Source: a virus (taxonomy: Duplodnaviria; Caudoviricetes). From it: a stretch of 53,368 nt of DNA. Under the pieces are notes generated by a model that saw only the letters and a list, made by a program, of their open reading frames with translations, did no database searches and was not told the DNA's origin. Numbering within the stretch: position 1 is the stretch's first letter; the number at the start of each line of letters is the position of its first letter. This document shows, in pieces, positions 12,559-47,925 of this stretch. Both the position numbers and the translations under genes were made by a program. The stretch covers positions 1-53,368 of IMG/VR virus record IMGVR_UViG_3300042475_005524; one strand, given 5' to 3'.

Positions 12559-12586
12559 TTGACTTTTGCGAAGCTTCCAAGATAAT
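12559..12586 (+). promoter_or_regulatory. Candidate sigma70-type promoter
   Basis: TTGACT (12559) - 16 nt - GATAAT (12581), ending 6 nt before ATG 12593. Confidence 0.4.
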
Positions 12587-12592
12587 TTTCTT

Positions 12593-32225: not shown

Positions 32226-32228
32226 TAT

Positions 32229-34121
32229 ATGAGCGTTTCATTCCAAGATCTTCAAGAAGCACTGACCCTTGACGACAAGGATGAATTTATCATTTGGCAA
32301 AACTCAAGCAAAAGAAACAAAAGAGTAAAGAGAGGAAATCTATTTGCAAGCAAAGGTTTAACAGTAAAGGGTAAGTTTATTGATGTTGAAAGTGGCAATG
32401 ATGTTGGATTAGCAGCTGCTGCTGCTGCAAACGATGCTGCTGTCGCGCTAGCGACAGCGGAAGGGGCGCAATTATCAGCTAACGGCAAAAATAGAATATT
32501 TTATCAAAGCTCGGAGCCGACAAGCGGATCAGGAGGTACAAGCGGTTACGCCTTAATTGAAAATGACTTATGGTTTGATACTGATGGTGGATATAGAATG
32601 GCTAAATGGAACGGAACTTCTTGGGAAGACTATGGACTTGAAACAGAAGCTATTGCTAATCTTGATGCGGGAAAGATAACTGCTGGGTTTATTGGCGCTC
32701 AAGTTATTAATATTAATGGTTCTGAAGGAGGAGGTATTAGTGGAACAGCTGGCGCTGGAGGCTATATAGAATCAACAAATTTCGTTCCAAGTTGGGTCTC
32801 TGGCGCTTTGACCGTAAGGCAGTATACAACATCTGGAACATATGGCGCTTATTTAGGTAAACATATTCCAAGCGACGCTGTTCAAGTAAAGGTTTTACAA
32901 GGCGATGGAAAATATAAACTTTTTAGATCGCTACAAAATCAAGGAGAAAACGCTACAAATGCCCCGCCTTCTAGCGGAAATAATTCCTATTGGCAGGAAA
33001 TAACTGGAGCCAATATTCCAGTATTTGAAATAGAGCTTCCAGGCGGAGGCACAAAACAAATTCAGAATTTTGGATTCAGAATAGTAAGCAATGGATATGC
33101 TGAATTTGGAGGCTCTCTTTTTAGAGGGGCTGTTATTGCAAACGAGGGTTTTTTTGGTACTACTTCTAATGCGGTAAGATTAGATGACGATGGGTTGACT
33201 GTAGGAGACTATGGAAGATTAAAATCTGCTAGTCTTGGTTATAATGGAACTAGTTTCTTTGTAAACTCTGGGACATCTGGGGGGTTTTTTCTTGGAAACA
33301 CTCAAGCAGAAGGGGGACCAGCTCTTTACCAGTTATATATTGGCAGTCCAGCTGGAAATAATTTATGGTGGAATGGAACTAGTTTAATTATAAATGGTAA
33401 AATTGGATTGCCAGACGGTGGAGATCAAGACAGCGATGCCGGTTTAGAGATTACAAGCGGATTTGGTATTAGAAGGTCTACAAGGAATAAGGTTTTAACA
33501 ATAACCGGAGGAGATGGCAATGGTGTTACCTTCGGGTCACAGATTGACCTTGTTGGTACACAATTTATGGGCGCTGGAGGTGGTGCCGAGGGTCAGTTAA
33601 TTTTATCTGGCGGCTATGACGCTACTTTAGATCCAGTTGATCCTTCTCGCGATGGATGCATCATATTTAGAACCGCCAGAGAAGAGGATAATGAAAATAT
33701 TGGGGCTGTTAGAGCTAGAATAGATTTAGATGGAACTTTTAGAATTATTGCGGCAGATAATGTTTATTCTGAAGCGCCAAATGATGGGGCTGGAAATTTA
33801 ATTGTCGATAATGAGGTTGAAGCGATAGCTTATAATTCGACTTCTTCTAAGCGTTTTAAGAAGAAAATTAAAAATTTAAAAAATGGTCTTACTCTTGTAA
33901 AATCTTTAAGGCCAGTTACTTTTGAATGGAAAAATAAAAAAAGAACAAGTGATATAGGTTTAATTGCTGAAGAGGTGAATGAAATTCTTCCAATGGTTGT
34001 TGGAAAAAATACAAATGGAGAAATTTCAAGCTTAGACTATGGCAAATTAACTACAATTTTAATTCAAGCGGTTAAAGAGCTTTCTGTTGAAGTTGAAAAA
34101 TTAAAAAGTAAAATAGGCTAA
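32229..34121 (+). CDS. Tail fibre/spike with C-terminal peptidase-S74-type intramolecular chaperone
   Basis: C-terminal [11 protein letters not shown]...[10 protein letters not shown]....IGLIAEEV....P..V...LDYGKL...LIQAVKEL plus coiled coil; also [20 protein letters not shown] and [12 protein letters not shown]. Confidence 0.85.
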
Positions 34122-34132
34122 GCTTTAATAAA

Positions 34133-35479
34133 ATGCCAGAAGAGCCGCCACCATCGACTTCGACTTCGACTTCGACATCGACTTCGACATCTGGTTCAAC
34201 ATCGAGTTCGACATCGAGTTCTGGTTCAAGTTCTAGTTCAACTTCTAGTTCAACTTCTAGTTCTAGTTCAACTTCTACTTCCAGTTCAACTTCTAGTTCT
34301 AGTTCCAGTTCGACTTCGAATTCAACATCGAACTCGACTTCTAATTCAGACTCTGCTTCGGTATCCGATTCGCCTTCGGTATCCGATTCTGTGTCCGAAT
34401 CGGACTCTGTGTCGGTGTCAGAGTCTGACTCGGTGTCCGTGTCCGAATCGGACTCTGTGTCGGTGTCCGAATCGGACTCTGTGTCGGTGTCAGAGTCTGA
34501 CTCGGTGTCCGTGTCCGAATCGGACTCTGTGTCGGTGTCCGAATCGGACTCTGTGTCGGTGTCAGAGTCTGACTCGGTGTCCGTGTCCGAATCGGACTCT
34601 GTGTCGGTGTCAGAGTCTGACTCGGTGTCCGTGTCCGAATCGGACTCTGTGTCGGTGTCAGAGTCTGACTCGGTGTCGGTGTCAGTGTCGGATTCGGTGT
34701 CGGTGTCAGTGTCGGATTCGGTGTCGGTGTCAGTGTCGGATTCGGTGTCGGTTTCTATTGAGATTACCACTACGCCGCCGCCGACTACGCCGCCGCCGAC
34801 TACGCCGCCGCCGACTACGCCGCCGCCGACAACGACGCCGCCGACAACGCCGCCGCCGACAACGACGCCCGCACCAACTACACCGCCGCCGACAACGACG
34901 CCTGCACCGACTACAACGCTTGCACCAACCACCACAACTGTTGCGCCGACAACTAGCACTACTCCAGCGCCGACAACTAGTACTACAGCTACCAGTACTA
35001 CTCAAACTAGTACCAGTACTACTCAAACTAGTACCAGTACTACCAGTACTACTCAAACTAGTACCAGTACTACCAGTACTACTACCAGTACTACTCAAAC
35101 TAGTACCAGTACTACCAGTACTACTACCAGTACTACAACTAGCACCACAACTAGTACTACTACCAGTACCACTACAACACCATCTCCTGTTTTTTGTAAT
35201 TATTTAGTAACTAATGAAAGCCTATCGATGGAAAGGGTTGATTTAGGTGAAATATTCTTTCCAAGAATTTCTGACAAAAGAGACGATATTAATTTTAAAA
35301 GTACTGGATACCAATATTCTGGAGTTGCGACAACAATTTTAAATGAAGATCCAATTGATATTTCTAATTTTTATGAAAAATCTACTGGAAATGGAATTGC
35401 TGCTGATGATCAAATAGATTACGATACGAACTATAAATTTAGCGGAGTAGATTTAAGATATTACTTTAGAAAGAAATAA
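34133..35479 (+). CDS. Ser/Thr/Pro-rich mucin-/SRRP-like repeat protein
   Basis: Consecutive blocks (S/T)n, (SVSESDSV)n, (TTPPP)n and (TSTT)n, then a globular C-terminal domain of about 95 aa; no signal peptide. Confidence 0.8.
34388..34755 (+). repeat. 24-bp coding tandem repeat (SVSESDSV about 12x, SVSVSDSV 3x)
   Basis: Two alternating synonymous variants: tccgaatcggactctgtgtcggtg and tcagagtctgactcggtgtccgtg. Confidence 0.9.
34766..35182 (+). repeat. 15-bp TTPPP repeats followed by accagtact (TST) repeats
   Basis: actacgccgccgccg x4 plus variants, then accagtactactcaaactagt-type units. Confidence 0.85.
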
Positions 35480-35480
35480 T

Positions 35481-36203
35481 ATGAAGGTAACAGCTTTAAT
35501 GGCTACATGCGGTAGGCACTACTACTGCGAAAGATCTGTCGCAATGTTTTTGGCGCAAAATTACCAAAATAAACATTTAGTTATAATTCAAAATTCAGAA
35601 AAAGAACAAAAGTTAGACCAGAATTATGATAATATCACACTGCTTAATAAATTTGGATTTTCTAATTTAGGATCTATTTATAATTACGCTTTAGATTTTA
35701 TTCCTCAAGATACAGACGTAATTTGTTTGTTTGACGATGATGATATGTATATGCCTGAGCATGTTACAGAGGGGGTGAACGGTTTAAAAAGAGGCGGCAA
35801 GAAGGCGTATAAGCCAAAATTCTCTTTTATGCAAATGAGATACGACATCTCTAAAATAAATAACGTCCTAGAACCGAGTTGGTTTATTAGTGCGGATGTT
35901 ATAAAAAAAGAAAAATTTAGAGAAGAAAGCGCAAAGCATCATTTCAACTGGATTGACTGGTGCCTAAAGAATAAACAAATTTATGTAGATCCAGAAGGTC
36001 CGTCCACATTAATTTATACTTGGGGAAATCAAGAGCGCCCGTGTTACAAAACAAGCGGATATGGTAAGCGCCCAGATGCTTTTGAACAATACAGAAAAAA
36101 CTCTCAAGATCACGGAGATGGAGTAATAACTCCAAATTCAAAAGAAGAAATAAATAAAATTTACGAAAAATTCTATCAATGGAAGCCAAAATCCACGCAG
36201 TAA
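35481..36203 (+). CDS. GT2-like (GT-A) glycosyltransferase
   Basis: VTALMATCGR...FLAQNY and CLFDDDDMY motifs. Confidence 0.75.
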   Translation: MKVTALMATCGRHYYCERSVAMFLAQNYQNKHLVIIQNSEKEQKLDQNYDNITLLNKFGFSNLGSIYNYALDFIPQDTDVICLFDDDDMYMPEHVTEGVNGLKRGGKKAYKPKFSFMQMRYDISKINNVLEPSWFISADVIKKEKFREESAKHHFNWIDWCLKNKQIYVDPEGPSTLIYTWGNQERPCYKTSGYGKRPDAFEQYRKNSQDHGDGVITPNSKEEINKIYEKFYQWKPKSTQ

Positions 36204-36769
36204 TAGTTGGTAAAGGGGCGACAGCAATAGAATTAAAAAGAAAAGACTTTCCAAATTCTATTTTAGTAGGAGTTAATCAGTCACCTTGTTTAGCAGACGA
36301 TCTTGATTATTCTTTTGCAAATGATGTTGAGGGTCTCTATGGCTTAACTGACGAGCATATGAAAAATGTTAAAGTTTTGGCGATACCAGAATACCCTCAC
36401 TTTAAAGGCTGGTCAAAGATTGATGTTTTGTATACAAAAGTCTTCGAAACTTGGGGTCATGTTGTTAAAGATTTTTTAATATATAATCTGTGGACGACTC
36501 CCAAAAAAAATAAAGATTTACCAACTTTAGATTGGGTAATGTCTAGTGGAGACGCTCCAATAAGCTATTTGGCAAAATACCATAATATTAAAAAATTTGA
36601 TTTATATGGAATTGGCGTTGGTAATGGATATCATCCAAAAGTATTAGAAATATTACCAAAAGATCATAAAAGATTTGGGAATACTTGGTCCGCTCCTCGA
36701 ATTGGCAAGCTTAGCAATAATATACAAAAGTTAAAAGATCTATACAATTTAGAGATTAATCTTCATTAG
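36179..36769 (+). CDS. Maf/DUF115-like (nonulosonate-transferase-fold) protein
   Basis: Pattern AVIVGKG...LVGVNQ...SSG..ISYLA...IKKFDLYGI resembles the Maf/CstII-like Rossmann fold. Confidence 0.45.
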   Translation: MEAKIHAVIVGKGATAIELKRKDFPNSILVGVNQSPCLADDLDYSFANDVEGLYGLTDEHMKNVKVLAIPEYPHFKGWSKIDVLYTKVFETWGHVVKDFLIYNLWTTPKKNKDLPTLDWVMSSGDAPISYLAKYHNIKKFDLYGIGVGNGYHPKVLEILPKDHKRFGNTWSAPRIGKLSNNIQKLKDLYNLEINLH

Positions 36770-36770
36770 T

Positions 36771-37631
36771 ATGAACGATAAATTAACAATTGGAATAGCC
36801 ACCTATGAAGACTATGATGGTTTATTTTTTACAATTCAATCTTTAAGAATGCATCATGCGGATGCAATGAAAGATGTCGAATTTGTTGTTATAGACAATA
36901 ATCCAGATAGCGCCTGTGGAGAAGCGTCAAGAAATTTTCTAAAGTCTATAAGGGAGCCAGCTAAATATATCCCATTTAGCGATTATAAATCTCCATTTCT
37001 TAAAGGGCAAATTTTTCATTTTGCCGAAACTAAATATGTGCTAGTTATGGATTCCCACATCCTCATGATGCCAAATTCAATTAAAAAATTAATTGAATTT
37101 TTTAGGCAGGAAAGGGATGAGGGTAACTTGCTTCATGGTCCACTTATTTACGATGACTTAGATAATATTTCTACTCACTTTGAAAATACTTGGAGAGGGC
37201 AAATGTGGGGAGTTTGGGGCACCGATGAAAGAGGGCGAAATGAGAATAATCCTCCTTTTGAAATTGAAATGCAGGGAATGGGGTTGTTTGCTTGTAGAAA
37301 ATTTTCTTGGCCAAAATTTAATCCTAATTTTAGAGGATTTGGTGGAGAAGAGGGCTACATACATCGTAAATTTAAAGCTGCTGGCAAAAAGACATTGTGC
37401 TTGCCTTTTCTTAGATGGATGCATCGATTTAATCGACCAAATGGAGTTCCGTATCCACTAGCACTAAAGGATAGAATAATGAATTATTTTATTGGCCATA
37501 TAGAATTGGGGCTAGACTGCGCACCAATATTTGAGCATTTTAAACAGTGGGAATCTGAAGAAAATCTTAAAAACATGCATCAAGATGCCGCCAGAATGAT
37601 AGATAATGATTTTTTAAAATTTTCAATTTAA
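36771..37631 (+). CDS. GT2-like glycosyltransferase
   Basis: LTIGIATY, EFVVIDNN, YVLVMDSH and FRGFGGEEGY motifs. Confidence 0.8.
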   Translation: MNDKLTIGIATYEDYDGLFFTIQSLRMHHADAMKDVEFVVIDNNPDSACGEASRNFLKSIREPAKYIPFSDYKSPFLKGQIFHFAETKYVLVMDSHILMMPNSIKKLIEFFRQERDEGNLLHGPLIYDDLDNISTHFENTWRGQMWGVWGTDERGRNENNPPFEIEMQGMGLFACRKFSWPKFNPNFRGFGGEEGYIHRKFKAAGKKTLCLPFLRWMHRFNRPNGVPYPLALKDRIMNYFIGHIELGLDCAPIFEHFKQWESEENLKNMHQDAARMIDNDFLKFSI

Positions 37632-38720
37632 ATGAGCAGAACAGTAGAATTTTTATTTTGGAATGATAAAAAGCTGTACGACTATAAAATGAGAGGTATA
37701 GTGATTGAGGCTATAGATGACAATGGTGGTAGAAAGAAAGAGTATAAAATGTCTATGGTCTCAACTTTAGATAATTTTTTTCATGACTTCTCTATAGAGA
37801 AAACTCTAAAGTCTATAAGAAAAGGTAGAATAGCAGCCGATGTTTTAGTTAGGAGAGATGAACATGGAACTTTATGGGGTGGAACTGAAAAATGGAAGAG
37901 TGTTGTAAATGAGTGTTATGCATTAAACATCAAGCCAATGTTTTTTGATTTTGGTTATTTTGACCATTACGACTCTTTCATGATTGATCATTATAACATA
38001 GATGGGAGAAGTGATATTTTTGCAGAATGGTCAAGCATTAGTGATGTGGTGAATTGGGACGCTTCGGAAAGTTATATCCAAAAATATAGAAATAATTTTC
38101 TAAAAAATTTAAAAAAAGCAAAAGAAGAAAAGCCTCTGGATGGACTAAAAGAGGGCGAATATGTAGTAATTTGGCCGCAATACTCTATGGATCTTCTACG
38201 AAAAGAGTTTAAGGAAAATTTAAATAAAAAGGATGAAGTAACAGATTGGATTAATAATATATGTAAAATAGTTTTAGATCAAGGTTTGATTCCAGTTGTA
38301 AAAGGTGGTCCTGCAATGCATAAGTGGTCAAGATTAAATACGGAAAACGTAAAAGATGTGCGGGTATTTACGCATACCGAAAAGCAGTCTGCTGAAATGA
38401 AAAATACGAAGTTTGAAAAAGATATAAACTATAAGCTAATCGCTCATGCTAAATACCATATAGTTTCATGCAGCAGCGTAACAAATGAACTCGTCTTGGC
38501 GAATGCACCAGTGGTCGCAATGGGTAAAAGCTGGTTTACTGGATTGGATATTTTTAATGAGCCTAATTCTTGGGGAAGTTTAACAAAAAATGCAACAGAG
38601 ATTAACACCAAAAACAGAAACAAATGGATAAATTGGTGGTTGAGCAGGCAGGTAAAAAAAGAAAAAGCGGCTGAAAAATTTTTTCAAATTTATAAAAAAT
38701 ATTCAAATATCGATTCCTAA
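37632..38720 (+). CDS. GT-B protein resembling capsule biosynthesis (KpsS/KpsC-like) transferases
   Basis: FFDFGYF, VVIWPQ and LIAHAKYHIVSCSSVTNELVLANAPVVAMG motifs. Confidence 0.45.
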   Translation: MSRTVEFLFWNDKKLYDYKMRGIVIEAIDDNGGRKKEYKMSMVSTLDNFFHDFSIEKTLKSIRKGRIAADVLVRRDEHGTLWGGTEKWKSVVNECYALNIKPMFFDFGYFDHYDSFMIDHYNIDGRSDIFAEWSSISDVVNWDASESYIQKYRNNFLKNLKKAKEEKPLDGLKEGEYVVIWPQYSMDLLRKEFKENLNKKDEVTDWINNICKIVLDQGLIPVVKGGPAMHKWSRLNTENVKDVRVFTHTEKQSAEMKNTKFEKDINYKLIAHAKYHIVSCSSVTNELVLANAPVVAMGKSWFTGLDIFNEPNSWGSLTKNATEINTKNRNKWINWWLSRQVKKEKAAEKFFQIYKKYSNIDS

Positions 38721-39437
38721 ATAATCGCATGCATTTTTAAATCCAGCACTTTCTATCTTTCCGTGAATACAAAATGGTTTAATTTTATTCTTTTCAAATT
38801 TAGAAATTCTTGACTTCCAAGCTTCTTGATTTTCAGAAGCTATGTTGAATCTATATGGATATTTATAGTAATTTTCCATTAATACTTTATTCGGAATTTT
38901 ATTTAAGAAAAATTTAGCCGCTTTAAATCCTGATCCTTTATTAAGATTTAGATTTTTATTTATATTCAAGAATTCTTTTAGGTATCCACTGCACCTTGGG
39001 CTAAAAAAAATAGAAAGATCGCTCCATTCTACTTTGCTCTTTTCTGGCTTTATTTTTTTTATTTGGCCAGAGCAGTATATATCGTACTTTTCTAAAATTT
39101 TATCTATATTTTTGGTTTCAAAAGGCTTAAACTGGAAGTTATCGTGATCGTTAACCCATAGGTTTTCGCCAAATCTTTCAATAGCCCAATTTAAAGCTAT
39201 ATACTTGCTTAGGCAACATCCGACCTGATTTTTAAATTCAACTTCTATATTAAAGCTTTTTATATCAAAAAGCTCATAATCAAAGTTTGTGGCTATAATG
39301 ATGTCGTTCTTGACCCAGCCACATTTTAGACTAGTGGACACTTGCTTATTTAAATAAAAAATAGCCTGCTCTTTCTCTAAGGAGTGCTTCCATTTTTCAT
39401 GTCCACTGGACAGGGTATAAGAAATCAGTTTCTTCAT
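38703..39437 (-). CDS. Hypothetical protein, possible GT-A glycosyltransferase
   Basis: SKY.AL.W....NLWVNDHDNF (DxD-like); lone inverted gene in the cluster. Confidence 0.4.
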   Translation of the reverse strand: MKKLISYTLSSGHEKWKHSLEKEQAIFYLNKQVSTSLKCGWVKNDIIIATNFDYELFDIKSFNIEVEFKNQVGCCLSKYIALNWAIERFGENLWVNDHDNFQFKPFETKNIDKILEKYDIYCSGQIKKIKPEKSKVEWSDLSIFFSPRCSGYLKEFLNINKNLNLNKGSGFKAAKFFLNKIPNKVLMENYYKYPYRFNIASENQEAWKSRISKFEKNKIKPFCIHGKIESAGFKNACDYLGIDI

Positions 39438-39491
39438 TAAATGAATAATATTTAAAAAAGCCCTATTATTTTATAATAATATGGGCTACGT

Positions 39492-40259
39492 ATGAATTTA
39501 AAAGATAAAATATTTAAAAAAATTTGGGATGGCAAGAAAACGGCCCATACGCCGATAGATCAATCAAAAATTGAACCGTATAGTATATACAAGAAATATA
39601 TAGTAGATATAAGCGATAAAAGATCTGGCAGCAGTAGCTTAGCTAGAAAAAAAATTTCTGTTTGGAGCGAATGTATGGAGTTATTGCCTGATGATTTTAT
39701 AGGTTTGGAGTTTGGTGTTTTTGAGGGGCGATCAATAAACTTTTTTTCAAAATTTTGCTCAAATGCTGTATTTTATGGATTTGATACATTTGACGGTCTA
39801 CCTGAACCTTGGATAGATCCTAGTGGCAGGGTTATTGGAAAAACTGGGGCGTTTAAAACTAAATTTAATAAAATTTCATTTAACGAAAACGTTAAAATAG
39901 TAAAGGGTTTATTTCAAGATACGCTACCAAAATTTTTAATAGAAAAACAAGATTTACTAGAAAAAGTAAATCTTATACATATTGACTGCGATATATATTC
40001 ATCAACTAGATTTGTTCTAGATCAGTGCCTAAGTATTATCAAATATAATAAGCCATATATTTTATTTGACGAATTTGTTAACTGCATAGAAGGCCAAGAT
40101 GAAAATTTTAAAGTAAATAATAAATTAATAGATATTACTCATGGATGTGAGTCACTTGCGTTTTTAGAATTTGTTGAAAAAAATCAAATAGATTTCGAGG
40201 TAATAGTTTCTTTCTTAAAGCCAAAAAAGACTTCCGTTGTTTTGATAAAGATTTTATGA
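39492..40259 (+). CDS. TylF/MycF-like sugar O-methyltransferase
   Basis: LEFGVFEGRS, YGFDTFDGLPE, VKGLFQDTLP, IHIDCDIYSST and ILFDE motifs. Confidence 0.8.
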   Translation: MNLKDKIFKKIWDGKKTAHTPIDQSKIEPYSIYKKYIVDISDKRSGSSSLARKKISVWSECMELLPDDFIGLEFGVFEGRSINFFSKFCSNAVFYGFDTFDGLPEPWIDPSGRVIGKTGAFKTKFNKISFNENVKIVKGLFQDTLPKFLIEKQDLLEKVNLIHIDCDIYSSTRFVLDQCLSIIKYNKPYILFDEFVNCIEGQDENFKVNNKLIDITHGCESLAFLEFVEKNQIDFEVIVSFLKPKKTSVVLIKIL

Positions 40260-40966
40260 GTATTCCAAAAAAAATTCATCAAATATGGATTGGTGAATCG
40301 GCAATACCAAGAAGCTGGGAATTTGACTGCAAGGAAATAGAGAAAAGACACCCAGATTGGGAATATATATTTTGGGGCAATGAAAAAGTTAATACGGAAT
40401 TAGATAAGATGCCTAAAAATGTAAAAGAAAAATATCAATATTTCTTCTCGGAAAAGAAGTGGGCCTATGCATGCGATATTCTTAGATACTGGATTCTATA
40501 TAAGCATGGTGGAGTTTATTTAGACTGTGATTTTAAAATGACAGAAAATGGGTCTTTAAATATGCTTCCTTTGAAAAAAAACCTAATCCTAGTGAACATG
40601 AGGGCGATACATAAAGGAAAAAAATTTAAATGTAGAATTCAAAATTGTTTTATGGCGGCAAAAAAGAAACAGAGTTTCTTAAAAAGAGTTGTACAAAAAA
40701 TATCAAATCTGAATTATAAATTAAAAACAATGCATGGGCAGGAAACAGAAAAATATAGCTGCGGGTTTCTGACTACAGAATATTGTTTCTACTCTCAAGG
40801 ATTAGAGACTATAAAGCATAAGAACTCATTTAGAAAAAAGATAAAAAAGATAATGCCAGATAAAGAGTGTATTTTAAATAAAGAATTTTTTCTTGGCAAA
40901 GATCCTATTATTGCCAAACATTTATCAAAAAGATCACACGGTCTAAAGCTTACAAATATATTTTAA
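40256..40966 (+). CDS. GT32 (OCH1-like, DxD) glycosyltransferase
   Basis: IPKKIHQIWIG, HPDWEY..W and DILRY.ILYKHGGVYLDCD motifs. Confidence 0.85.
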   Translation: MSIPKKIHQIWIGESAIPRSWEFDCKEIEKRHPDWEYIFWGNEKVNTELDKMPKNVKEKYQYFFSEKKWAYACDILRYWILYKHGGVYLDCDFKMTENGSLNMLPLKKNLILVNMRAIHKGKKFKCRIQNCFMAAKKKQSFLKRVVQKISNLNYKLKTMHGQETEKYSCGFLTTEYCFYSQGLETIKHKNSFRKKIKKIMPDKECILNKEFFLGKDPIIAKHLSKRSHGLKLTNIF

Positions 40967-40974
40967 ATTTTAAT

Positions 40975-41436
40975 ATGTGCGCCGCAATAGGAACTACAGA
41001 CCCGTATTCTACTCATCAAGAAGCTTTAGTTTTTGCGGCTCTATCTACTTCGGGAGATATTTTGGAGCTAGGATGCGGAGATTATTCAACTCCAATTTTA
41101 AATCAAATAGCTAATTTTCAGAAAAAAAAATTTAAAATTATTTCTTCTAATAAGGCTTGGTTAGACAAGTATCAATACGTAGAAGATAGAGAGTTAATAA
41201 AAAAATGGAAAGACTATGTTTTTGAAGGCTCGTATGGAATGGTATTTTTAGATAACGAGCAGTTTACTATTGACCGATTAGAGTTAATTCCAAAAATATT
41301 TAATATTACTAAGACTTTAGTTGTTCACGATGCTGACAAAATTAGCAAATTAAAAAATTGGAATGATTATGTTTTTGGTAAAAAAATAACTTGGTTTAAA
41401 AAATATTTACCTCATACAGCTATTATAGAAAAATGA
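40975..41436 (+). CDS. Small methyltransferase-like protein
   Basis: ILELGCGDYSTP, VFLD and VVHD motifs. Confidence 0.55.
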   Translation: MCAAIGTTDPYSTHQEALVFAALSTSGDILELGCGDYSTPILNQIANFQKKKFKIISSNKAWLDKYQYVEDRELIKKWKDYVFEGSYGMVFLDNEQFTIDRLELIPKIFNITKTLVVHDADKISKLKNWNDYVFGKKITWFKKYLPHTAIIEK

Positions 41437-42086
41437 ATGTTTTTTGCCAAAGCTGTAAAAAAAATATTGCCAATATAAATCCGTGCGTATCTAATCTTGA
41501 TAGAATTCATTTTCCATTTCAAAGAAGAAAGGATTCAGATATCCCAGAATTGCAGGATGTAAAGAAAATAAAATGCAAGTATAAAAAATTAAAATATTGC
41601 ATATGCGCTTTAAGAAGAAAAAAAATTCAATATTGGTACTTATTTGATGAAATTGTCAGTAATAATATAGACGAGTTATGCACTACATTAAACGCTAGAT
41701 GGATAGTTTCAATTTGTGATACATATATAGACTATGGAAGTGATGAAGAAAAATGTGGATCAATTGCAGTATCGACATTAAATTTTTGCTTTACACTTAA
41801 CAATTCTATATATCATTCAAAAGAAAAAATAAATCCAAAATCAAATATAATAGGCAAGATATGCTCTGTTCCGTATGACACTAGCTTTATGTTTAAAAAC
41901 GAGAATGATTTTTTTGAAAACTATCTTAAAAGATTTATTTATTCAATAAAGAGATCGGATAAAATTTATCGCTTTGGTATGGCTTTTTTACAAAGACAAA
42001 TAAAAGACAAGAATACTTTATTTTTCTATGTAAATAGTTTAAATGAAAAAAAATTTAAAATAGATGAACAAATTTCAAATAGTTAG
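41433..42086 (+). CDS. Hypothetical protein
   Basis: ORF overlaps both neighbours; core LNARWIVSICDTYIDYG; function unknown. Confidence 0.55.
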   Translation: MNVFCQSCKKNIANINPCVSNLDRIHFPFQRRKDSDIPELQDVKKIKCKYKKLKYCICALRRKKIQYWYLFDEIVSNNIDELCTTLNARWIVSICDTYIDYGSDEEKCGSIAVSTLNFCFTLNNSIYHSKEKINPKSNIIGKICSVPYDTSFMFKNENDFFENYLKRFIYSIKRSDKIYRFGMAFLQRQIKDKNTLFFYVNSLNEKKFKIDEQISNS

Positions 42087-43227
42087 TGGCTATACCAAAA
42101 ATACTCCATACGAAAAAGAAGTTCAAAACTTAAAAGCTTCACTAGATAAGTTTGGATTTAGCTGTGAGCACGTAGTTGGTTTTGAAAATCTTGGAACTTG
42201 GGAAAAAAACTGTCAGCAGAAAGCCTTGATACTAAAATCAAAACTACAAGAGCTTAAAACTCCAATTGTGTGGTTAGATGCCGATGCGGTGCTAAAAAAG
42301 AATCCAGTGCTCTTTTATGAAATAGAAAAGGATATTGCGTTTTGTTATTATAGGATAGCTGGCAAGGATGAACTCCTTAGCGGCACTATTTTTTTAAAAC
42401 CTTCTGAAATAAGCTTTAAAATATTGGATGAATGGATTAAATTAAACAATCAAAATCCAAAAGAATGGGATCAAAGAACGCTGCAAAAAATAATAAAAAA
42501 TTTCAAAATAGATTATTACAACTTACCGCCTTCGTATTGCAAAATAGATTACATAAAATGTGATGAAATAGTAATAGGACAAAATCAATCTAGCAGAAGG
42601 TTTAAGTCAATAATTAATGCGGACGAAGAAATTTATAAAAGATATTCTGAATATAATGTTTCTTTATGGGAAAATTTAAAAATTGTATACTGGGCAATTC
42701 CAAAGAGTGGATCAACAACAATAAAGAATCATTTATTAAATCTAAATAGCGGTATTGTATTAAAAAATCCTTTACAGGTTCACGATCAGCAATATCAAAA
42801 AATAATAAAACCAGAGTATAGAGATAAGTATTTTAATTTTTCATTAGTCAGAAATCCAATATCTAGATTTTGCAGCATGTATCAAGATTTTTTTGTATAT
42901 AGGCAAAAAAATAATATGTACTTTCCAAAGGAGTTGAATAAAGATTGGAAGGCATTGGATTTTGCAAAATACCTTTTAGAAACAGAAGATAAACAATTAA
43001 ATATTCACTTTAAAAGTTTTTCATTTTTTTTAAAAGATAAAAGGATTAAAATTTTTACATTAGAAAATTTAAAAGAAGATTGGAGCATTGATATACCGGC
43101 TCCAGATAAAAAAATGAATACAAGATCTGATAACAATTTTACAATTTGTGAAGATACAGTCGCTTTAATAAAAGCAAGATATAGTGATGATTTTTTAATT
43201 TGGCAAAATAAAGATTTAAATTTTTAA
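42064..43227 (+). CDS. Fusion of a GT-A nucleotide-diphospho-sugar transferase and a family-2 sulfotransferase
   Basis: N-half has IVWLDADA, LLSGTIF and WDQRTL. C-half has AIPKSGSTTI, FSLVRNPISRFCSMY and IHF. Confidence 0.8.
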   Translation: MNKFQIVSGYTKNTPYEKEVQNLKASLDKFGFSCEHVVGFENLGTWEKNCQQKALILKSKLQELKTPIVWLDADAVLKKNPVLFYEIEKDIAFCYYRIAGKDELLSGTIFLKPSEISFKILDEWIKLNNQNPKEWDQRTLQKIIKNFKIDYYNLPPSYCKIDYIKCDEIVIGQNQSSRRFKSIINADEEIYKRYSEYNVSLWENLKIVYWAIPKSGSTTIKNHLLNLNSGIVLKNPLQVHDQQYQKIIKPEYRDKYFNFSLVRNPISRFCSMYQDFFVYRQKNNMYFPKELNKDWKALDFAKYLLETEDKQLNIHFKSFSFFLKDKRIKIFTLENLKEDWSIDIPAPDKKMNTRSDNNFTICEDTVALIKARYSDDFLIWQNKDLNF

Positions 43228-44153
43228 TGAAAATACTTTACATAACCCCTCACTTATCAACTGGAGGTTTGCCTCAGTATCTTTTAAAAAAGATGGAATG
43301 CTTAAAAAAGCATGAACTCTGGTGCGTTGAATATAATTTTGTATCAGATAAATATACGGTTCAAAGAAATCAAGTAGTAGATCTTTTAAAAGATAGATTT
43401 GTTTCTTTAGGCAATCGGCCAAAAGAAAAGCTGCTGGACTTGATAGCTGAGACATCGCCAGATGTAATTCATTTTGAGGAGTTTCCAGAAACGTTTGTCT
43501 CTCACGAAATGCTGTATAAAATATACAGCAAAAGTAGGAATTATTTAATATTTGAAACCAGTCACGGAATTTATTACAAGGCCGAAAGTAAGATTTTCCT
43601 ACCGGATAAGTTCATTTTTGTTTCTGAAATGCAGGCTGAATTATACGGAAAGATGGGCGTTAGTTATGAGATAGTTGAGTACCCAATAGACTTTAAAAAC
43701 CCAGATAAAAGTTTTAAAAAAGAATTGGGATTAACTGGCGATGTAAAGCACGTATTAAACGTTGGACTTTTTACTCAGGGTAAGAACCAAAAAGAGTTAA
43801 TAGAATACGCGCGCGCGCTAGTGGGCGAGAAGATTCAATTTCATTTTGTTGGCAATATGGCAATTAACTTTAAAGAGTATTGGGAGCCGATTCTAAAAAA
43901 CTTACCAAGTAACTGCTTAATTTGGGGCGAAAGAAGCGATGTGGATAAGTTTTACCAATCTGCCGATTTGATGGTATTTACCTCAAAAAAAGAAACATCG
44001 CCACTAGTTATCAGGGAAGCCTTGTCTTGGAAACTGCCCTGCTTAATTTATAATCTACCAGCCTATAAGAATATGTACGACAAGTTCTCTGGAGTTGGTT
44101 ATTTAAAAGATGGCGACTTTAAGGAAAACATTAAAAAGATAAAAAGCCTATGA
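43227..44153 (+). CDS. GT4-family glycosyltransferase
   Basis: MKILYITPHLSTGGLPQY, LNVGLFTQGKNQ and FYQSADLMVFTS..E.SPLVIREAL motifs. Confidence 0.85.
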   Translation: MKILYITPHLSTGGLPQYLLKKMECLKKHELWCVEYNFVSDKYTVQRNQVVDLLKDRFVSLGNRPKEKLLDLIAETSPDVIHFEEFPETFVSHEMLYKIYSKSRNYLIFETSHGIYYKAESKIFLPDKFIFVSEMQAELYGKMGVSYEIVEYPIDFKNPDKSFKKELGLTGDVKHVLNVGLFTQGKNQKELIEYARALVGEKIQFHFVGNMAINFKEYWEPILKNLPSNCLIWGERSDVDKFYQSADLMVFTSKKETSPLVIREALSWKLPCLIYNLPAYKNMYDKFSGVGYLKDGDFKENIKKIKSL

Positions 44154-45319
44154 AAGACAGCTTAATGCAAATTTACTCAATGACTGAGAAGTCGTCTAAG
44201 GAACCAAGAAAGGCTCAAAATGCTATCGAAGTATCATTTACTGATTCCGCTAAGGTGTCAATAAACGGCCCAGTTGATCAGAGTTATACCGTAAAGTTTA
44301 TTAATAATAAGACTGGCGAGATTACTTATTCTTCAGAAATTAAAAATAATATGTGGTCGAAGTCAGCGATCTCCTATTATGTTGAATGGAGAATCATAGT
44401 GGAATCAGGTGGTCAAACCGTATTTGACCAAGTTTTAAATCTTAACGATAAGAAGGTATTGATAATTATAGACTCACAAAGCCTTGGCGATATTCTTGCC
44501 TATACTGGTCAGATTGACCGATTTCAAATTAAGCACGGATGTAAGATGGATGTTTTGGTGCTAAATAAGGAGTTGGCTGAAATACTTGATTCCTCTTATG
44601 AGAATATAAGTTTTATTTCTGATATTGGCTATAGGGAAGATTACTATGCAATTTACAGTATAGGCTACCCATTAGAAAACTGGAAAAACAAAAATGCAAT
44701 TGATCCTCGGACCATTCCATTGCAAAAAGTTGCCAGTTCAGTTCTTGGCCTTGATTTTAAAGAGGAAAAGCCTATTTTGACATTTTTAAATACAACTAGG
44801 AAAAATAAAAAATATGTGACTATTGCGACTCAAAGCACGGCTCAGTGCAAATACTGGAATAATGAAAATGGCTGGAAAGAGGTAATAAAATATTTAAATA
44901 ATAAAGGGTATGATGTTTGGTGCATTGACCGTTTTCCTTCTTTTGGAAATCAAAAGATGATGAACTATATTCCAAAGGGCGCAATAGATAAGACTGGAAA
45001 CTTTCCGCTAGAGATGAGAATGTCGCAAATCTATAATTCCGAATTTTTTATTGGCTTAGGATCTGGTCTGTCTTGGTTGGCATGGGCGTTGAACAAGCCT
45101 GTAGTTCTCATTAGCGGTTTTAGCAAACCGCTTGCAGAGTTTGAGACTCCTTATAGAATTATTAATGAGTCGGTTTGTAATGGTTGCTGGAATGATTCAA
45201 GTTTAAAATTTGATAAATCTGACTGGATGTGGTGTCCAAGAAATAAAAAATTTGAGTGCTCTTCAGAAATAAGCTCTGATATGGTTATAGATAAAATTAA
45301 AAATTTATTAAAAAATTAA
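44150..45319 (+). CDS. Aah/TibC-like autotransporter protein O-heptosyltransferase homologue
   Basis: SLGD, YV.IATQSTAQCKYWNN..GW..V, FFIGLGSGLSWLAWA..KPVVLISGFS.P..EF.TPYR and CNGCWN-x13-CP-x4-FEC motifs. Confidence 0.85.
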   Translation: MKDSLMQIYSMTEKSSKEPRKAQNAIEVSFTDSAKVSINGPVDQSYTVKFINNKTGEITYSSEIKNNMWSKSAISYYVEWRIIVESGGQTVFDQVLNLNDKKVLIIIDSQSLGDILAYTGQIDRFQIKHGCKMDVLVLNKELAEILDSSYENISFISDIGYREDYYAIYSIGYPLENWKNKNAIDPRTIPLQKVASSVLGLDFKEEKPILTFLNTTRKNKKYVTIATQSTAQCKYWNNENGWKEVIKYLNNKGYDVWCIDRFPSFGNQKMMNYIPKGAIDKTGNFPLEMRMSQIYNSEFFIGLGSGLSWLAWALNKPVVLISGFSKPLAEFETPYRIINESVCNGCWNDSSLKFDKSDWMWCPRNKKFECSSEISSDMVIDKIKNLLKN

Positions 45320-46018
45320 TTTTTGTTTTATTTTTTCAAAATTTAGACCAAGTTCAAAAAGCTTTTCTTCGTAGCCATATCTTACAAAAGCTGAATATTC
45401 GTATATAGCAGTTTTAATCAGAGTTTCTTTGTCCCATACCAGCCCATTTTGTGGTGCAATGCTTTGGTTTTGACGGGGGTACTGTCTTACAAAATCTTCG
45501 TCAAAATTAATATTCATTATATTTAAAACTTTAATAAAGTCATTTAACAAATTTTCTTGCTTTCCTATAAAATTTATTTTATGCATTGTGAACCAGCCAT
45601 ATAGCTCTGTGACATATCCTGGTCTTTTTTTATTTACACTTTGTACAAATGAATTAAAATTTGTATTATCTATTTTATTCAAAATACAACTTGGGTGCCA
45701 GTAACGAATATCATTTTCATCTCCAAATGTTCGCCATTGTATATTTGGAAGATTCATGTAATTAAACCATGATTCATACCAAGTTATTGGATTTCTGACA
45801 AAGCAAAAAGAAAATGGGGGAGCCTGAATTTCTTTACTTTTATTAAGCTTGCTTGCGGCCATTTTATAAAGCTCTCTTTTACCGCATAAAAAAGTAGCAT
45901 GTTTTACGCTAACTCTTTTTTCAATCAGGCCAAGATCTTTTAATACACTAGCTACCCAAGTTCCGCCTGTCTTTGGTACATGTAAAAATACTGCTCCATT
46001 TTTCAATATTATGGGCAT
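45308..46018 (-). CDS. Family-2 (carbohydrate) sulfotransferase
   Basis: FLHVPKTGGT, FCFVRNPITWYES and FIGKQENL motifs. Confidence 0.8.
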   Translation of the reverse strand: MPIILKNGAVFLHVPKTGGTWVASVLKDLGLIEKRVSVKHATFLCGKRELYKMAASKLNKSKEIQAPPFSFCFVRNPITWYESWFNYMNLPNIQWRTFGDENDIRYWHPSCILNKIDNTNFNSFVQSVNKKRPGYVTELYGWFTMHKINFIGKQENLLNDFIKVLNIMNINFDEDFVRQYPRQNQSIAPQNGLVWDKETLIKTAIYEYSAFVRYGYEEKLFELGLNFEKIKQKLIF

Positions 46019-46019
46019 T

Positions 46020-46400
46020 TCAATACTCTACTTTAACCCGCTTAGACTCGTAGGTCTTTTTTTGGTCAGGGTGAATTGCCCCTTTGCGACTGGAGGAATA
46101 GTCCTTAAAAAACTTTTCTTTTATTGGATCAGATCCGCCATAAGTCTTTGCGCGCTTTTCGCTTAATTCTTTACTTTTATCTATCAAATCGCCATAAGTA
46201 CCCTTCTTGTTCTTTGTTGCGTCAATGAATGCGGTACTGCTATTCGGGTCTATTTGCGAATCTATCGAGGCATTGGGTATCTGGTATACCCTTTTCCACT
46301 TTAGGCCGCTTTTGTCGATATATGAGTGCTCCTCGTTCATAGACTGGAGCACGTCGATAGTTTCTCCAGTATCGGGATTCTCGTATGTGTAAAGTGGCAT
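46020..46400 (-). CDS. FmdB-like small protein (zinc-ribbon-type N-terminus without Cys)
   Basis: N-terminal MPLYTYENPDTGETIDVLQSM. Confidence 0.5.
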   Translation of the reverse strand: MPLYTYENPDTGETIDVLQSMNEEHSYIDKSGLKWKRVYQIPNASIDSQIDPNSSTAFIDATKNKKGTYGDLIDKSKELSEKRAKTYGGSDPIKEKFFKDYSSSRKGAIHPDQKKTYESKRVKVEY

Positions 46401-46414
46401 ATTTTATTATAAAT

Positions 46415-46440
46415 AAAAAAGCCGCTTTTTCAAGCGGCTT
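46415..46440 (-). terminator. Rho-independent terminator after hsp20
   Basis: AAGCCGCTT-gaaa-AAGCGGCTT followed by a T run on the minus strand. Confidence 0.8.
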
Positions 46441-46445
46441 AGTTT

Positions 46446-46769
46446 TTACGTAATTTTAATTGTTTTCAGTTGAGGAGGCTTCTTGTTTGGAATTCTAAAT
46501 AGAAGCTGTCCGTGTTCCATAGTTGCCGTCGCATTGTGCATATCAAGCTTCTCGGAAACATCAAAAACTTGGCTAAACACGCTAGCCTTATTCTTTTGAG
46601 CTTCGATTTTAACCGTATAGTCAACGTCACTATACGAGATGGTCACGTTGTCTTTGTGGACTCCTGGTAGATCAACGGTGATTGTGGCGCCGTTTTCATC
46701 TACGTTAGAGATATAGTTATAAGTGCTCGCAGCACTTGTTGCTGAATAATAATATGTTTTTGAGTACAT
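46446..46769 (-). CDS. Small heat-shock protein (Hsp20/alpha-crystallin) (start revised to ATG 46769)
   Basis: ITVDLPGV.K.NV.I...FSQVFDV...A.ATMEHGQL...IP motif. Confidence 0.75.
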   Translation of the reverse strand: MYSKTYYYSATSAASTYNYISNVDENGATITVDLPGVHKDNVTISYSDVDYTVKIEAQKNKASVFSQVFDVSEKLDMHNATATMEHGQLLFRIPNKKPPQLKTIKIT

Positions 46770-46824
46770 AGTTGTTACGGCGCTATTTAGCAAAGCTTAT
46801 GCCAAGAGCTTTTCCTAGGCAGAG

Positions 46825-47925
46825 TTAGGAAATGCCCTTAATAATTGAGACAATTTGTCTTACAGATTTTTCGTAAGTGAAGTTTTGTCTCGTAATCTTG
46901 CCCTGCTCATTTATCTTCCCAGCCTCAACAAGAGTAACAGCTTTCTCCATTGCAGCAATAGCCTGATCTTCATTGAAGTCATAGATGCATCCTTGATTGA
47001 AATCGCTGCCTTTATTAAAGAATGTTCCATCATAGGCTTCGATTTTAGCAGAAGGATTAACTAGAATTGAGTTCTGATCTGTGGCCCAGTCCTTATGGCT
47101 AGTAGCGTTAAGAACAACGCTCCACTTACCTAAACAAGTGGAATTAAAAGCTGGAAGACCCCAGCCTTCTGCGCCGCTCAGTCCGCTTAGATCAATATTA
47201 CAAGAATTAATAATATCATTAACTTCTGAGTTCGTACTGACATAGGGTAGAACATTAATATTCCAAGCTAGGCCGCGATAACCCAAAATAATCTTCTTCA
47301 TCAATTCGTGATTAAAAAATGGGTTAATAATCGAGCAGTTAAGCTGGAACTTGGGATTGTTCCCGAATCGCTTAGCCCACATTTTAACAATCTTATCAGT
47401 ATGCTTCCGCTTCTCAAACTTACCCATTAGCAAGAATGAGATCTTGTCTGGCATGTATGTCTTCTTTGTTTCGAAGAAGTCTTCGTCAAAACCAAGAGGG
47501 GTAGAATACGCCTTGCCAAGATTAGCGTTAGCAAAACACCTAGATGCGTGCGAACTAGAGAAGATCACCGCATCTTGAGAACCAACTATTGCATTTTCCG
47601 CAACAGTTGGCTGATCAAGTTCGTAAAAGGTATAAAGAACCTGTTTTGGACAGATCCTCTTTTCGGCTCCATTAATGTGCCAAAGCTTAAGACTTACCGC
47701 ATCCTTTGATAAGGACGAGTATCGATTAGAGATAATCGACTGAACCCAAGCGGAAAAATCCTTGTCCATTTTATCGAATGCGGAAGTTTTAACTTCCCCG
47801 ATAGGGAACATAGAGATTTTAAAGCTTGGATCAGAAATCGAAAGCTTATAGAACTCCTTTAGGAAGTTGTAACAAACATTCCCAAAGGAAACTTGGTTTA
47901 ATGGAGCTTCAAAGACGATCTTCAT
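46825..47925 (-). CDS. GT4-like glycosyltransferase
   Basis: PLGFDE, FLLMGKFEKRKH and SGAEGWGLPAF motifs. Confidence 0.8.
   Translation of the reverse strand: MKIVFEAPLNQVSFGNVCYNFLKEFYKLSISDPSFKISMFPIGEVKTSAFDKMDKDFSAWVQSIISNRYSSLSKDAVSLKLWHINGAEKRICPKQVLYTFYELDQPTVAENAIVGSQDAVIFSSSHASRCFANANLGKAYSTPLGFDEDFFETKKTYMPDKISFLLMGKFEKRKHTDKIVKMWAKRFGNNPKFQLNCSIINPFFNHELMKKIILGYRGLAWNINVLPYVSTNSEVNDIINSCNIDLSGLSGAEGWGLPAFNSTCLGKWSVVLNATSHKDWATDQNSILVNPSAKIEAYDGTFFNKGSDFNQGCIYDFNEDQAIAAMEKAVTLVEAGKINEQGKITRQNFTYEKSVRQIVSIIKGIS

Follow-up and report, generated by a model that had tools for sequence, protein, structure and literature searches.

Directly behind the tail-fibre gene of an uncultivated phage lies a gene for a protein made largely of Ser- and Thr-rich repeats, and behind that gene follows a long run of genes for glycan-related enzymes. 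The question raised by this locus is what those enzymes act on, namely the repeat protein, other proteins of the virion, the host surface or the phage DNA. The stretch analysed, called the window below, is one linear IMG/VR virus record (IMGVR_UViG_3300042475_005524) of 53,368 bases, estimated to be 37% complete and judged from its tail genes to be a piece of a siphovirus-type genome. The tail fibre (32229-34121, plus strand; 630 residues) ends in a Peptidase_S74 intramolecular chaperone (Pfam PF13884, E 1.8e-12) and has 25 PHROG matches, 19 of which are to tail-category families. The repeat gene (34133-35479) starts with an ATG 11 bases past the fibre stop and encodes 448 residues, and the enzyme cluster (35481-46018) comes next. 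Sequence features, family memberships, a solubility prediction and co-variation among related loci are the observations at hand; from these we infer glycosylation itself, a place on the virion and a biological role, and consider it probable on balance that phage-encoded enzymes O-glycosylate a virion appendage protein in the cytoplasm.

The mucin-like, low-complexity part of the repeat protein comprises residues 1-343 (34133-35161, plus strand). It opens with MPEEPPPS (residues 1-8) and continues with an (STS/SSS)n block (residues 9-73; 34157-34351), a block of (SVSESDSV)n and (SVSVSDSV)n (residues 74-211; 34352-34765), a further block (residues 212-277; 34766-34963) and a TSTT(Q) block (residues 278-343; 34964-35161). 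Ser (130) and Thr (90) together make up 220 of the 343 residues (64%), alongside 37 Val, 33 Pro, 18 Asp and 15 Glu, with no Lys, Arg or aromatic residue. Tandem Repeats Finder gave scores of up to 528 on the gene and a 24-nucleotide unit in 15 copies. The GC (guanine plus cytosine) content is 0.48 in the repeat gene, 0.25-0.35 in the open reading frames (ORFs) of the cluster and approximately 0.40 in the flanks. An earlier reading made from the letters of this DNA, the sequence-only reading, had described a protein of (S-X)n and TSTT blocks placed directly after the tail fibre; the ORF layout, the block composition and the repeat scores confirm it. The same holds for its statement that the protein has neither a signal peptide nor an LPxTG motif, as neither is present in the 34133-35479 product, which begins with MPEEPPPS and reaches a top 19-residue Kyte-Doolittle mean of 1.04.

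With repeats of this kind, the long ORF could in principle be no gene at all: the repeats would then be hypermutable or non-coding DNA, with translation restricted to the last approximately 83 codons, from an internal ATG. This reading draws on a database representative of 83 residues (P0001) that begins at the internal Met of the repeat ORF, on the antisense frame, which is likewise open over 295 codons, and on the assembly of the closely related locus L014, which breaks within the repeats. However, alignments place the start of the family domain upstream of the internal Met, and the plus frame runs unbroken into this conserved domain. Locus L015, in which the C-terminal domain is 67% identical and the first three enzymes are 90-94% identical, has no Met at the internal position, yet its frame continues without a stop through 191 low-complexity codons as far as the edge of the contig, with poly-Pro, TTPPPP, TTVPP and TTSTTPAP blocks in the same frame. 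In L014, whose enzymes are 99-100% identical, the architecture is the same and the repeat number changes in frame. Of the seven variable columns among the 15 24-nucleotide units, six fall at codon position 3; because third codon positions coincide in the sense and antisense frames, this pattern argues for coding and leaves the strand undecided. The position of the ATG immediately behind the fibre stop and the MP start, which recurs in positional equivalents, likewise speak against the non-coding reading, which we hold to be very improbable. On this comparative evidence, the 448-residue ORF is a real gene. The antisense ORF (34072-34959, minus strand; 295 residues), whose product would contain DTESDSDT repeats and stretches of Gly and Val, reaches into the end of the fibre gene; most probably it is an artefact that reflects the composition of the repeats.

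The repeat protein closes with a non-repetitive domain of approximately 105 residues (residues 344-448; 35162-35479, plus strand), containing three copies of a motif near N-F/Y-K-x-x-G-x-D-L-x-x-I/Y-F. The domain is similar to the N-terminal 80 residues of the 738-residue post-fibre protein of locus L005 (BLASTP E 4e-8, 30% identity over 61 residues) and, weakly, to the start of the collagen-like post-fibre fibre of L007 (E 0.02). When a three-sequence profile was run against 1.84 billion proteins, 167 representatives reached E <= 0.001, and 26 of these reached E <= 1e-10. Among the 150 representatives listed, 145 have a match that begins within the first 40 residues, the exceptions being P0029, P0067, P0080, P0091 and P0122; 17 of the 150 have a 40-residue window of at least 70% Ser/Thr/Pro, 8 have a collagen-like run, and many of the top-scoring long members inspected are arrays of immunoglobulin (Ig) domains. 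The domain has no Pfam or PHROG family, a scan of IMG/VR with it gave no match, and a word-based homologue search with residues 340-448 scored 0 of 2826 candidates. Judged from these alignments, this uncharacterised module usually stands at the start of appendage-type proteins; here it closes a protein that otherwise consists of nothing but a disordered tract. Were the repeat protein part of the virion, its attachment would have to come from this module. The sequence-only reading had proposed anchoring by this domain; its homology to the module of approximately 95 residues that opens the post-fibre genes of relatives fits such a role.

The enzyme cluster spans 10,538 bases and contains 13 ORFs, two on the minus strand and eleven on the plus strand; its first ATG lies one base past the stop of the repeat gene. 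This agrees with the approximately 10.5 kilobases of 13 mostly glycan-related genes that had been described. From the fibre gene through the repeat gene to the enzyme genes up to 38720, all genes are on the same strand, with overlaps or gaps of at most 11 bases. The first product (35481-36203, plus strand) resembles glycosyltransferases (GTs) of family GT2 weakly (PF00535, E 5.2e-4, 20.4 bits against a cut-off of 23.3) and has a 90% identical counterpart in L015. It is followed by a small protein with the MptE/Maf/sialyltransferase fold (36179-36769, plus), discussed below, and by a GT2 enzyme (36771-37631, plus) that passes the same cut-off (PF00535, E 7e-8, 33 bits vs 23.3); thus, of the two GT2 enzymes originally proposed, the second stands and the first falls below the cut-off. 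The next product (37632-38720, plus) had been called KpsS-like; here the evidence is an Atlas structure match (template-modelling score, TM, 0.65) to PF05159 (Capsule_synth) clusters, which makes the name a lead, and a homologue at 51% identity is found in cassettes of the L005 type. A 244-residue ORF on the minus strand (38703-39437), 100% identical in L014, precedes an O-methyltransferase of the TylF/Methyltransf_24 type (39492-40259, plus; PF13578 E 1.4e-8, PF05711 E 6.3e-7, phrog_6608 E 3.7e-29), the only one supported of the methyltransferases that had been announced in the plural. A GT32-type (Gly_transf_sug) enzyme with a DXD sugar-binding region (40256-40966, plus; PF04488, E 4.4e-13) is followed by two ORFs of 153 and 217 residues (40975-41436 and 41433-42086, both plus), and neither these two nor the minus-strand ORF matches a family in Pfam, PHROGs or NCBIfam.

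The right part of the cluster begins with a fusion of a Nucleotid_trans (nucleotide-diphospho-sugar transferase) domain and a Sulfotransfer_2 domain (42064-43227, plus; PF03407 E 1e-4, PF03567 E 2.4e-12). Next come a GT4 enzyme (43227-44153, plus; PF00534, E 3.3e-14), its conserved partner, a homologue of the Aah/TibC-family protein O-heptosyltransferases (44150-45319, plus; TIGR04414), and, converging from the minus strand, a further sulfotransferase (45308-46018; Sulfotransfer_2, PF03567 E 3.5e-7; phrog_3347). The Pfam scan also supports a GT9 in the cluster. The GT32, the GT-sulfotransferase fusion, the GT4 and the sulfotransferase, all named in the sequence-only reading, are supported by Pfam.

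Evidence on the type of acceptor comes from the TibC-like enzyme. Characterised Aah/TibC members heptosylate Ser residues of proteins in the cytoplasm. The 44150-45319 product scores 363.6 bits against the equivalog model TIGR04414 (E 1.1e-108, cut-off 200) and matches the TibC structure PDB 4rap_A over residues 28-379 (E 6.2e-75), a strong confirmation of the earlier assignment. In the eLife study of TibC (PMC4358343), Asp-110 is given as the catalytic base, Thr-226, Lys-230, Arg-286 and Trp-305 as sugar-binding residues and Cys-339, Cys-342, Cys-358 and Cys-370 as an iron finger. All of these residues are conserved in the phage enzyme, where they align with D114, T230, K234, R290, W309 and C343/346/362/370. 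The N-terminal beta-barrel of the family (Pfam TibC_1st) scores 16.4 bits, below the cut-off of 27, and the phmmer alignment to TibC starts at residue 28. TIGR04414 was also passed by all seven TibC-like proteins tested from relatives and distant phages, at 205-355 bits. No autotransporter domain was found in any window ORF scanned. Therefore, by sequence, the protein is a true member of the Aah/TibC family, with a substrate class that is presumably different.

The GT4 enzyme is 74-87% identical in L003-L009. In four distant or sister loci (L010, L011, L025 and L013, the latter being Microcystis phage Mel-JY01), GT4 and TibC-like domains are fused in one polypeptide, an argument for a common substrate of both enzymes. 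In three of the four distant loci (L011, L012 and L013; not L010), the TibC-like gene has structural genes of fibre-like or low-complexity type as neighbours. Mel-JY01 (PP395634.1) is an isolated cyanophage that would offer a culturable system for this idea. In its region 3065-8430, a 1226-residue protein annotated 'methyltransferase FkbM' carries the GT4 and TibC-family domains (317 bits), and the gene stands directly after one for a 'structural protein' rich in I-S-S-S motifs.

A second candidate for a protein-modifying enzyme is the 36179-36769 product. Maf enzymes O-link nonulosonic acids to Ser/Thr residues of flagellin in the cytoplasm. The AlphaFold model of the phage protein, built from a seven-sequence alignment, has a predicted local distance difference test (pLDDT) value of 84.2. 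With VIA-align it matches the MptE-type kinase 8sd5 (Z 13.0), the Maf glycosyltransferase 5mu5 (Z 12.8, root-mean-square deviation 3.3 over 162 residues, 5mu5 270-492) and the sialyltransferase Cst-I 2p56 (Z 9.3), and Foldseek matches it to CstII (E 1.3e-3). A further lead came from the Atlas, in which 13% of the members of one cluster are MptE-like (score 0.90). No Pfam match was found at E <= 5; of the earlier label 'Maf-like', it is the fold that stands. The modelled structure thus makes this protein an MptE/Maf/sialyltransferase-fold protein and a candidate nonulosonic-acid transferase.

In all 13 cluster proteins, the 19-residue hydropathy mean stays at or below 1.32, with no membrane-helix-like segment, the usual threshold for such a helix being approximately 1.6. 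Flippases, polymerases and lipid-carrier initiating transferases were not found in Pfam and NCBIfam scans of the window. The cluster enzymes are predicted to be soluble. Membership in the TibC family, the Maf fold, this lack of membrane machinery and the prolyl hydroxylases in sister cassettes, described below, together argue for proteins as acceptors. Prolyl hydroxylases act on proteins.

These results bear directly on the reading in which the cluster remodels host surface glycans, such as lipopolysaccharide, capsule or S-layer glycan, during infection, the repeat protein being unrelated. Precedent for it exists, in that such remodelling is what is usually suggested for the 'LPS gene' clusters of cyanophages and in that work on cyanomyoviruses (PMC12801897) interprets their large GT sets as modifying the host cell surface; moreover, members of the GT2, GT4, GT32, KpsS-like and sulfotransferase families often take part in polysaccharide synthesis. 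However, the scans revealed neither a membrane-spanning enzyme nor a flippase, polymerase or initiating phosphoglycosyltransferase; the TibC family, the Maf fold and the prolyl hydroxylases of the sister cassettes indicate protein acceptors; and the cluster is part of the late tail operon, its content changing with the tail of the protein encoded next to it. Host-surface remodelling is therefore judged to be distinctly unlikely. Hypermodification of the phage DNA by the glycosyltransferases fares worse still. Glycan synthesis on DNA by phage GTs is known (Pyle et al., 2024, as cited in PMC12619734), and the cluster borders replication genes on the opposite strand (single-stranded DNA-binding protein, SSB, and dUTPase). 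Against this idea stand the sulfotransferases and the link to a protein tail, in addition to the TibC family, the Maf fold and the prolyl hydroxylases of sister cassettes, and no base-hydroxymethylase was found in scans of the window. We regard DNA as an extremely improbable target.

If proteins are the acceptors, the remaining question is which ones, and here the comparison of related loci is instructive. Relatives were collected with two scans, one by the TibC-like protein and one by alignment of the C-terminal domain, referred to here as the anchor domain, and loci were grouped into types by their post-fibre protein. Eight types have downstream sequence. The type count leaves out L003 (4.7 kilobases, no post-fibre gene) and L017, L020, L023 and L026 (the contig ends before the cassette position), and L010-L013, which belong to a different lineage, were kept apart from it. 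The shared gene order is tape measure, a gene of the 29315 type, Dit, a gene of the 31047 type, S74 fibre, post-fibre gene, variable genes, GT4, TibC-like gene and conserved minus-strand genes. In the eight locus types with an anchor-family post-fibre gene, this gene abuts or overlaps the S74-fibre gene; the slot of the L007 type holds a collagen fibre in place of an anchor-family gene. In every relative examined, the gene preceding the anchor-family gene matches the tail fibre of the window.

What varies is the tail of the post-fibre protein and the set of enzymes behind it. The window and L014, with Ser-rich, TTPPP and TSTT blocks, have 10 extra enzyme genes before the GT4-TibC pair. L015, with poly-Pro and Thr/Pro blocks, has at least eight: GT2, Maf-fold protein, GT2, methyltransferase, 2-oxoglutarate (2OG) oxygenase, polysialyltransferase-like protein, Nucleotid_trans-like protein and GT29 sialyltransferase. 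In L004/L005/L021, the post-fibre protein is an Ig array with a poly-Thr, (SP)n and poly-Ser tail, and six extra genes follow (KpsS-like, unknown, TylF methyltransferase, GT8, unknown and GT2); in L006/L022, an Ig array with a (TP/EP)n tail is followed by two (an O-FucT-family protein and a 2OG oxygenase); and in L007-9, a collagen-like fibre with S74 is likewise followed by two (a 2OG oxygenase and a double GT2). The types L024/L025, L028 and L027 have no tract and no extra enzyme genes. In L024/L025, additional domains, among them a second GT4, are fused to the GT4 and TibC-like proteins, and in L027 the GT4 and TibC genes are absent too. The maximal Ser/Thr/Pro fraction in 30 residues is 0.53-0.57 in L024/L025 vs 0.87-0.97 in the tailed Ig-array types L021 and L022.

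Thus, 2-10 extra modifying-enzyme genes stand behind the post-fibre gene in all five types with a tract (Ser/Thr/Pro-rich or collagen-like) and in none of the three tract-free types. The hypergeometric probability of this split, calculated by hand, is 1 in 56, a figure that is not a proper significance test as the types are related phages. The co-occurrence of repeat tract and enzyme cluster across relatives, which had been suggested as a check, is thereby borne out among these related phages. The nature of the enzymes also follows the tail in part. A PF13640 2OG oxygenase gene occurs in three cassette types (L015, L006/L022 and L007-9), all of which have Pro-rich tracts, and the L015 and L006 oxygenases match prolyl 4-hydroxylase structures (E 2e-24 and 3.6e-25), including those of the Bacillus anthracis, Chlamydomonas, human and chlorovirus enzymes. 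A Pfam search for collagen matched two of the five relatives' records, which are partial. In L015, the eukaryote-type GT29 sialyltransferase (E 1.2e-19) and the polysialyltransferase-like gene (E 2.4e-7), at 4111-6173, are hints of nonulosonic acids in these glycans. The best explanation of the variable cassette is a set of enzymes suited to the low-complexity tail encoded beside it, and within the lineage the post-fibre gene and the cassette behind it appear, from the gene comparison, to be swapped together.

The same comparison supplies the material for a competing explanation, in which the enzymes glycosylate other virion proteins, such as the collagen-like (G-T/S-S)n fibres, the S74 fibre or the Ig-array proteins, and the tract is an unmodified flexible spacer in the same hypervariable island. 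It is consistent with the GT4-TibC pair being found with post-fibre proteins without a mucin tail (L024/L025 and L028), with the two (GTS/GSS)n collagen-like fibres in the window and with a second sulfotransferase/GT8-GT9 module there that lies beside other appendage genes. On the other hand, the variable cassette tracks the presence of a tail, prolyl hydroxylases occur only in cassettes beside Pro-rich tails, and a tract with this Ser/Thr content is a plausible acceptor for O-glycosyltransferases. We consider a spacer role for the tract, with the enzymes directed elsewhere, unlikely. A related and compatible idea is that the conserved GT4-TibC pair may prime other Ser/Thr-rich appendages as well, e.g., (GTS)n collagen-like fibres.

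Several observations weigh against glycosylation of the repeat protein itself. First, the GT4-TibC pair is present in the two types without a mucin tail just mentioned and absent from L027; since it occurs without such a tail, the pair is not specific to the repeat protein. Second, the eight locus types are related phages, so that the split between types with and without a tract does not consist of independent events. Third, the match between tract and enzymes is imperfect, as the window and the L005 type have Pro-containing tracts without a prolyl hydroxylase. Fourth, the position that governs selectivity for the ADP-heptose donor in this family (Pro-300, D,D, in TibC; Ser-294, L,D, in AAH) is Gly304 in the phage enzyme rather than either of these residues. 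Fifth, no genes for heptose or nonulosonic-acid nucleotide sugars were found in the window and four partial relatives. Among the records of five relatives, which are fragments except for the complete Mel-JY01, PF13580 (GmhA type) was found in none and PF01467 in Mel-JY01 only, in a cytidylyltransferase-like gene. With no nucleotide-sugar synthesis genes found, the donors must come from host pools or from the missing 63% of the genome. Sixth, structure searches gave no match for the proposed docking domain, which was modelled with moderate confidence. The AlphaFold2 model has a pLDDT of 64.7, and the blocks of its last 40 residues reach 84-91; Foldseek found no PDB match at E <= 10, VIA-align in its wide mode none at Z >= 2, and a search of BFVD returned unnamed viral proteins only (best E 6.6e-3). 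Finally, two RNA-library runs contain four short pieces in 36625-38704, with 0-2 differences and three of the four in the 99%+ band; these pieces, from two enzyme genes, may be carried-over DNA and are no proof of transcription.

The course of events under the favoured reading, cytoplasmic O-glycosylation of the repeat protein, can be outlined as follows. Late in infection, the tail operon would be read through the fibre, repeat-protein and enzyme genes. Lacking a signal peptide, the 448-residue protein would stay in the cytoplasm, where soluble enzymes would O-glycosylate its 343-residue acidic Ser/Thr/Pro tract, the candidate primers being the TibC-type Ser O-heptosyltransferase and the Maf-fold enzyme. 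Enzymes of the GT2, GT32, GT4 and Nucleotid_trans types would lengthen the glycans, and the methyltransferase and the two sulfotransferases would decorate them. The C-terminal triple-motif domain would then dock the product on the tail, near or on the S74 fibre. The outcome would be a negatively charged brush of glycans, serving as a shield for the tail tip or in adhesion. The sequence-only reading had proposed a virion mucin of this kind; the predicted solubility of the enzymes, the co-occurrence among relatives and the homology of the C-terminal domain support it in part, and its idea of different blocks for different transferases is a conjecture.

A wider and more tentative proposal, to which we give somewhat less than even credence, concerns the lineage as a whole. 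These lake-water siphophages would possess an exchangeable post-fibre slot, in which the acceptor tail (Ser-rich, Thr/Pro-rich, poly-Pro or collagen-like) is swapped together with matching soluble enzymes, giving mucin- or extensin-like, partly sulfated virion glycoproteins that are produced in the cytoplasm of the bacterial host. The enzymes of the slot would comprise TibC-type and Maf-fold primers, extenders resembling GT2, GT8, GT29, GT32 and O-FucT, prolyl hydroxylases, methyltransferases and sulfotransferases. If true, this would be a viral equivalent of eukaryotic mucin-type and hydroxyproline O-glycosylation that diversifies the particle surface.

Among known systems, the likeness to TibC-TibA and Aah-AIDA-I of E. 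coli (the bacterial autotransporter heptosyltransferase, BAHT, family) is one of sequence-level family membership: the enzyme is predicted to be soluble, its gene lies near that of the presumed substrate, and Ser O-modification of a repetitive protein in the cytoplasm would be expected. Unlike these systems, the present one is in a phage genome, and the acceptor is presumed to be a mucin-like, disordered tract or a fibre of collagen-like type rather than a beta-helical autotransporter passenger. In addition, the phage enzyme has Gly at the donor-selectivity position, a GT4 partner that is fused to it in other phages, and many tailoring enzymes around it. With the Maf flagellin glycosyltransferases (5MU5) and CstI/CstII, the 36179-36769 product has its fold in common; Maf has 632 residues vs 196 here, and there is no sequence-level family match.

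The locus had also been described as organised like a serine-rich-repeat (SRR) glycoprotein system. The likeness to the SRR adhesins (Fap1 and GspB) and to the serine-aspartate (SD)-repeat adhesins with SdgA/SdgB lies in a Ser-dipeptide repeat protein beside cytoplasmic glycosyltransferases, and to this extent the description holds as an analogy. SecA2/SecY2/Asp and GtfA/GtfB were not found in Pfam or NCBIfam scans of the ORFs, and the GT4 enzyme gives generic GT4 matches only. The repeat tract scores at the level of composition against families with SD regions (ClfA, 52.6 bits vs a cut-off of 1150; SdrD, 49.6 vs 2500), and the NCBIfam transferase models give 25 bits for SdgA and 18.1 for SdgB, vs 800 for each. 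Membership in the SRR/accessory-Sec or Sdr/Sdg systems was rejected, since signal peptide, LPxTG motif, SecA2/SecY2/Asp and GtfA/GtfB, the defining features, are absent and the scores are far below the cut-offs.

The closest viral precedents found are the virion glycosylation of mycobacteriophages and the fibril clusters of Megavirinae. In mycobacteriophages, according to papers that cite Freeman et al. (2023, Cell Host Microbe), phage-encoded GTs glycosylate the phage's own structural proteins, at the C-termini of capsid and tail-tube subunits and with few transferases. Phage-encoded glycosyltransferases for own structural proteins would be common to both. In contrast, the present locus has a dedicated mucin-like protein at the tail-fibre locus together with TibC-type, Maf-fold and sulfotransferase enzymes, to which relatives add prolyl hydroxylases and a GT29. 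In Megavirinae (Mimivirus), clade-specific glycan gene clusters decorate the surface fibrils, as stated in PMC10117803, and the cassettes described here likewise differ between close relatives. The Megavirinae, however, are giant viruses of eukaryotes and have their own nucleotide-sugar synthesis, for which no genes were found here. Full-text searches, in which subscription journals are thinly covered, returned no paper on a phage-encoded TibC homologue or on a phage mucin-plus-transferase locus.

Virion glycosylation by phage enzymes has so far been shown, as far as we found, only for the termini of mycobacteriophage capsid and tail-tube proteins. If the favoured reading is true, the additions would be a dedicated mucin-like virion glycoprotein, the use by phages of the TibC family and of the flagellin-GT fold, and sulfated glycans, possibly with acidic sugars, from a bacterial cytoplasm. 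Joint swapping of tail and cassette would make the surface glycan of a phage a fast-evolving trait, of consequence for adsorption, survival in water and recognition by grazers or immune systems. Such loci would also be a source of soluble protein-glycosylating enzymes for glyco-engineering.

Elsewhere in the window, a second modification module is found at 12566-14921 (plus strand), with a Sulfotransfer_1 protein and a 567-residue fusion of a GT8 and a generic GT9; the GT9 part is not of the TibC family. This module lies directly 3' of a gene for an RCC1-repeat protein and of three Laminin_G_3 paralogues, which are concanavalin-like lectin-fold proteins; all of these are upstream of the tail genes. 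The two collagen-like (G-T/S-S)n fibre genes (683-3208 and 4309-5529, plus strand; PF01391, E 8e-49 and 4.3e-37) lie further upstream. Among the tail genes themselves are a Phage_min_tail/Dit-like gene (30085-31047) and a tape-measure gene (20690-29311), whose 2873-residue product implies a very long tail. To the right of the cluster, a GT1/GT4-like protein (phrog_2170; 46825-47925, minus strand) is encoded in a block with HSP20, SSB, a 195-residue protein and dUTPase. It is 65-83% identical in all relatives, including L027, which is without GT4-TibC, and may have a target other than that of the tail-side cluster.

Close relatives were not found among 50,697 deposited phage records by megablast of 30000-48000, and tblastn against the phage collection identified no relative via the repeat protein, the Dit-like protein, the L005 anchor domain or the family member P0063. 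Eighteen lake-water DNA runs contain at least half of the sampled words, and 16 of these may be source samples. For P0152, a protein 82% identical to the 36179-36769 product, the source names a metagenome-assembled genome of 'Candidatus Fonsibacter ubiquis'. Together with the low GC content and the lake-water DNA, it may point to a SAR11 host from fresh water, or may equally well be a binning artefact. No tRNA genes were found in the window. A promoter scan of the window gave 77 hits vs 66.0 expected from shuffles, which is not above the shuffles, and a terminator scan gave 22 vs a shuffle mean of 12.8 (standard deviation 3.6), a modest excess with one clear feature, a bidirectional terminator at 46419-46440. 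Near the right end of the window, DUF5824 and DUF5672 proteins are encoded at 50336-50953 and 51761-52342, respectively.

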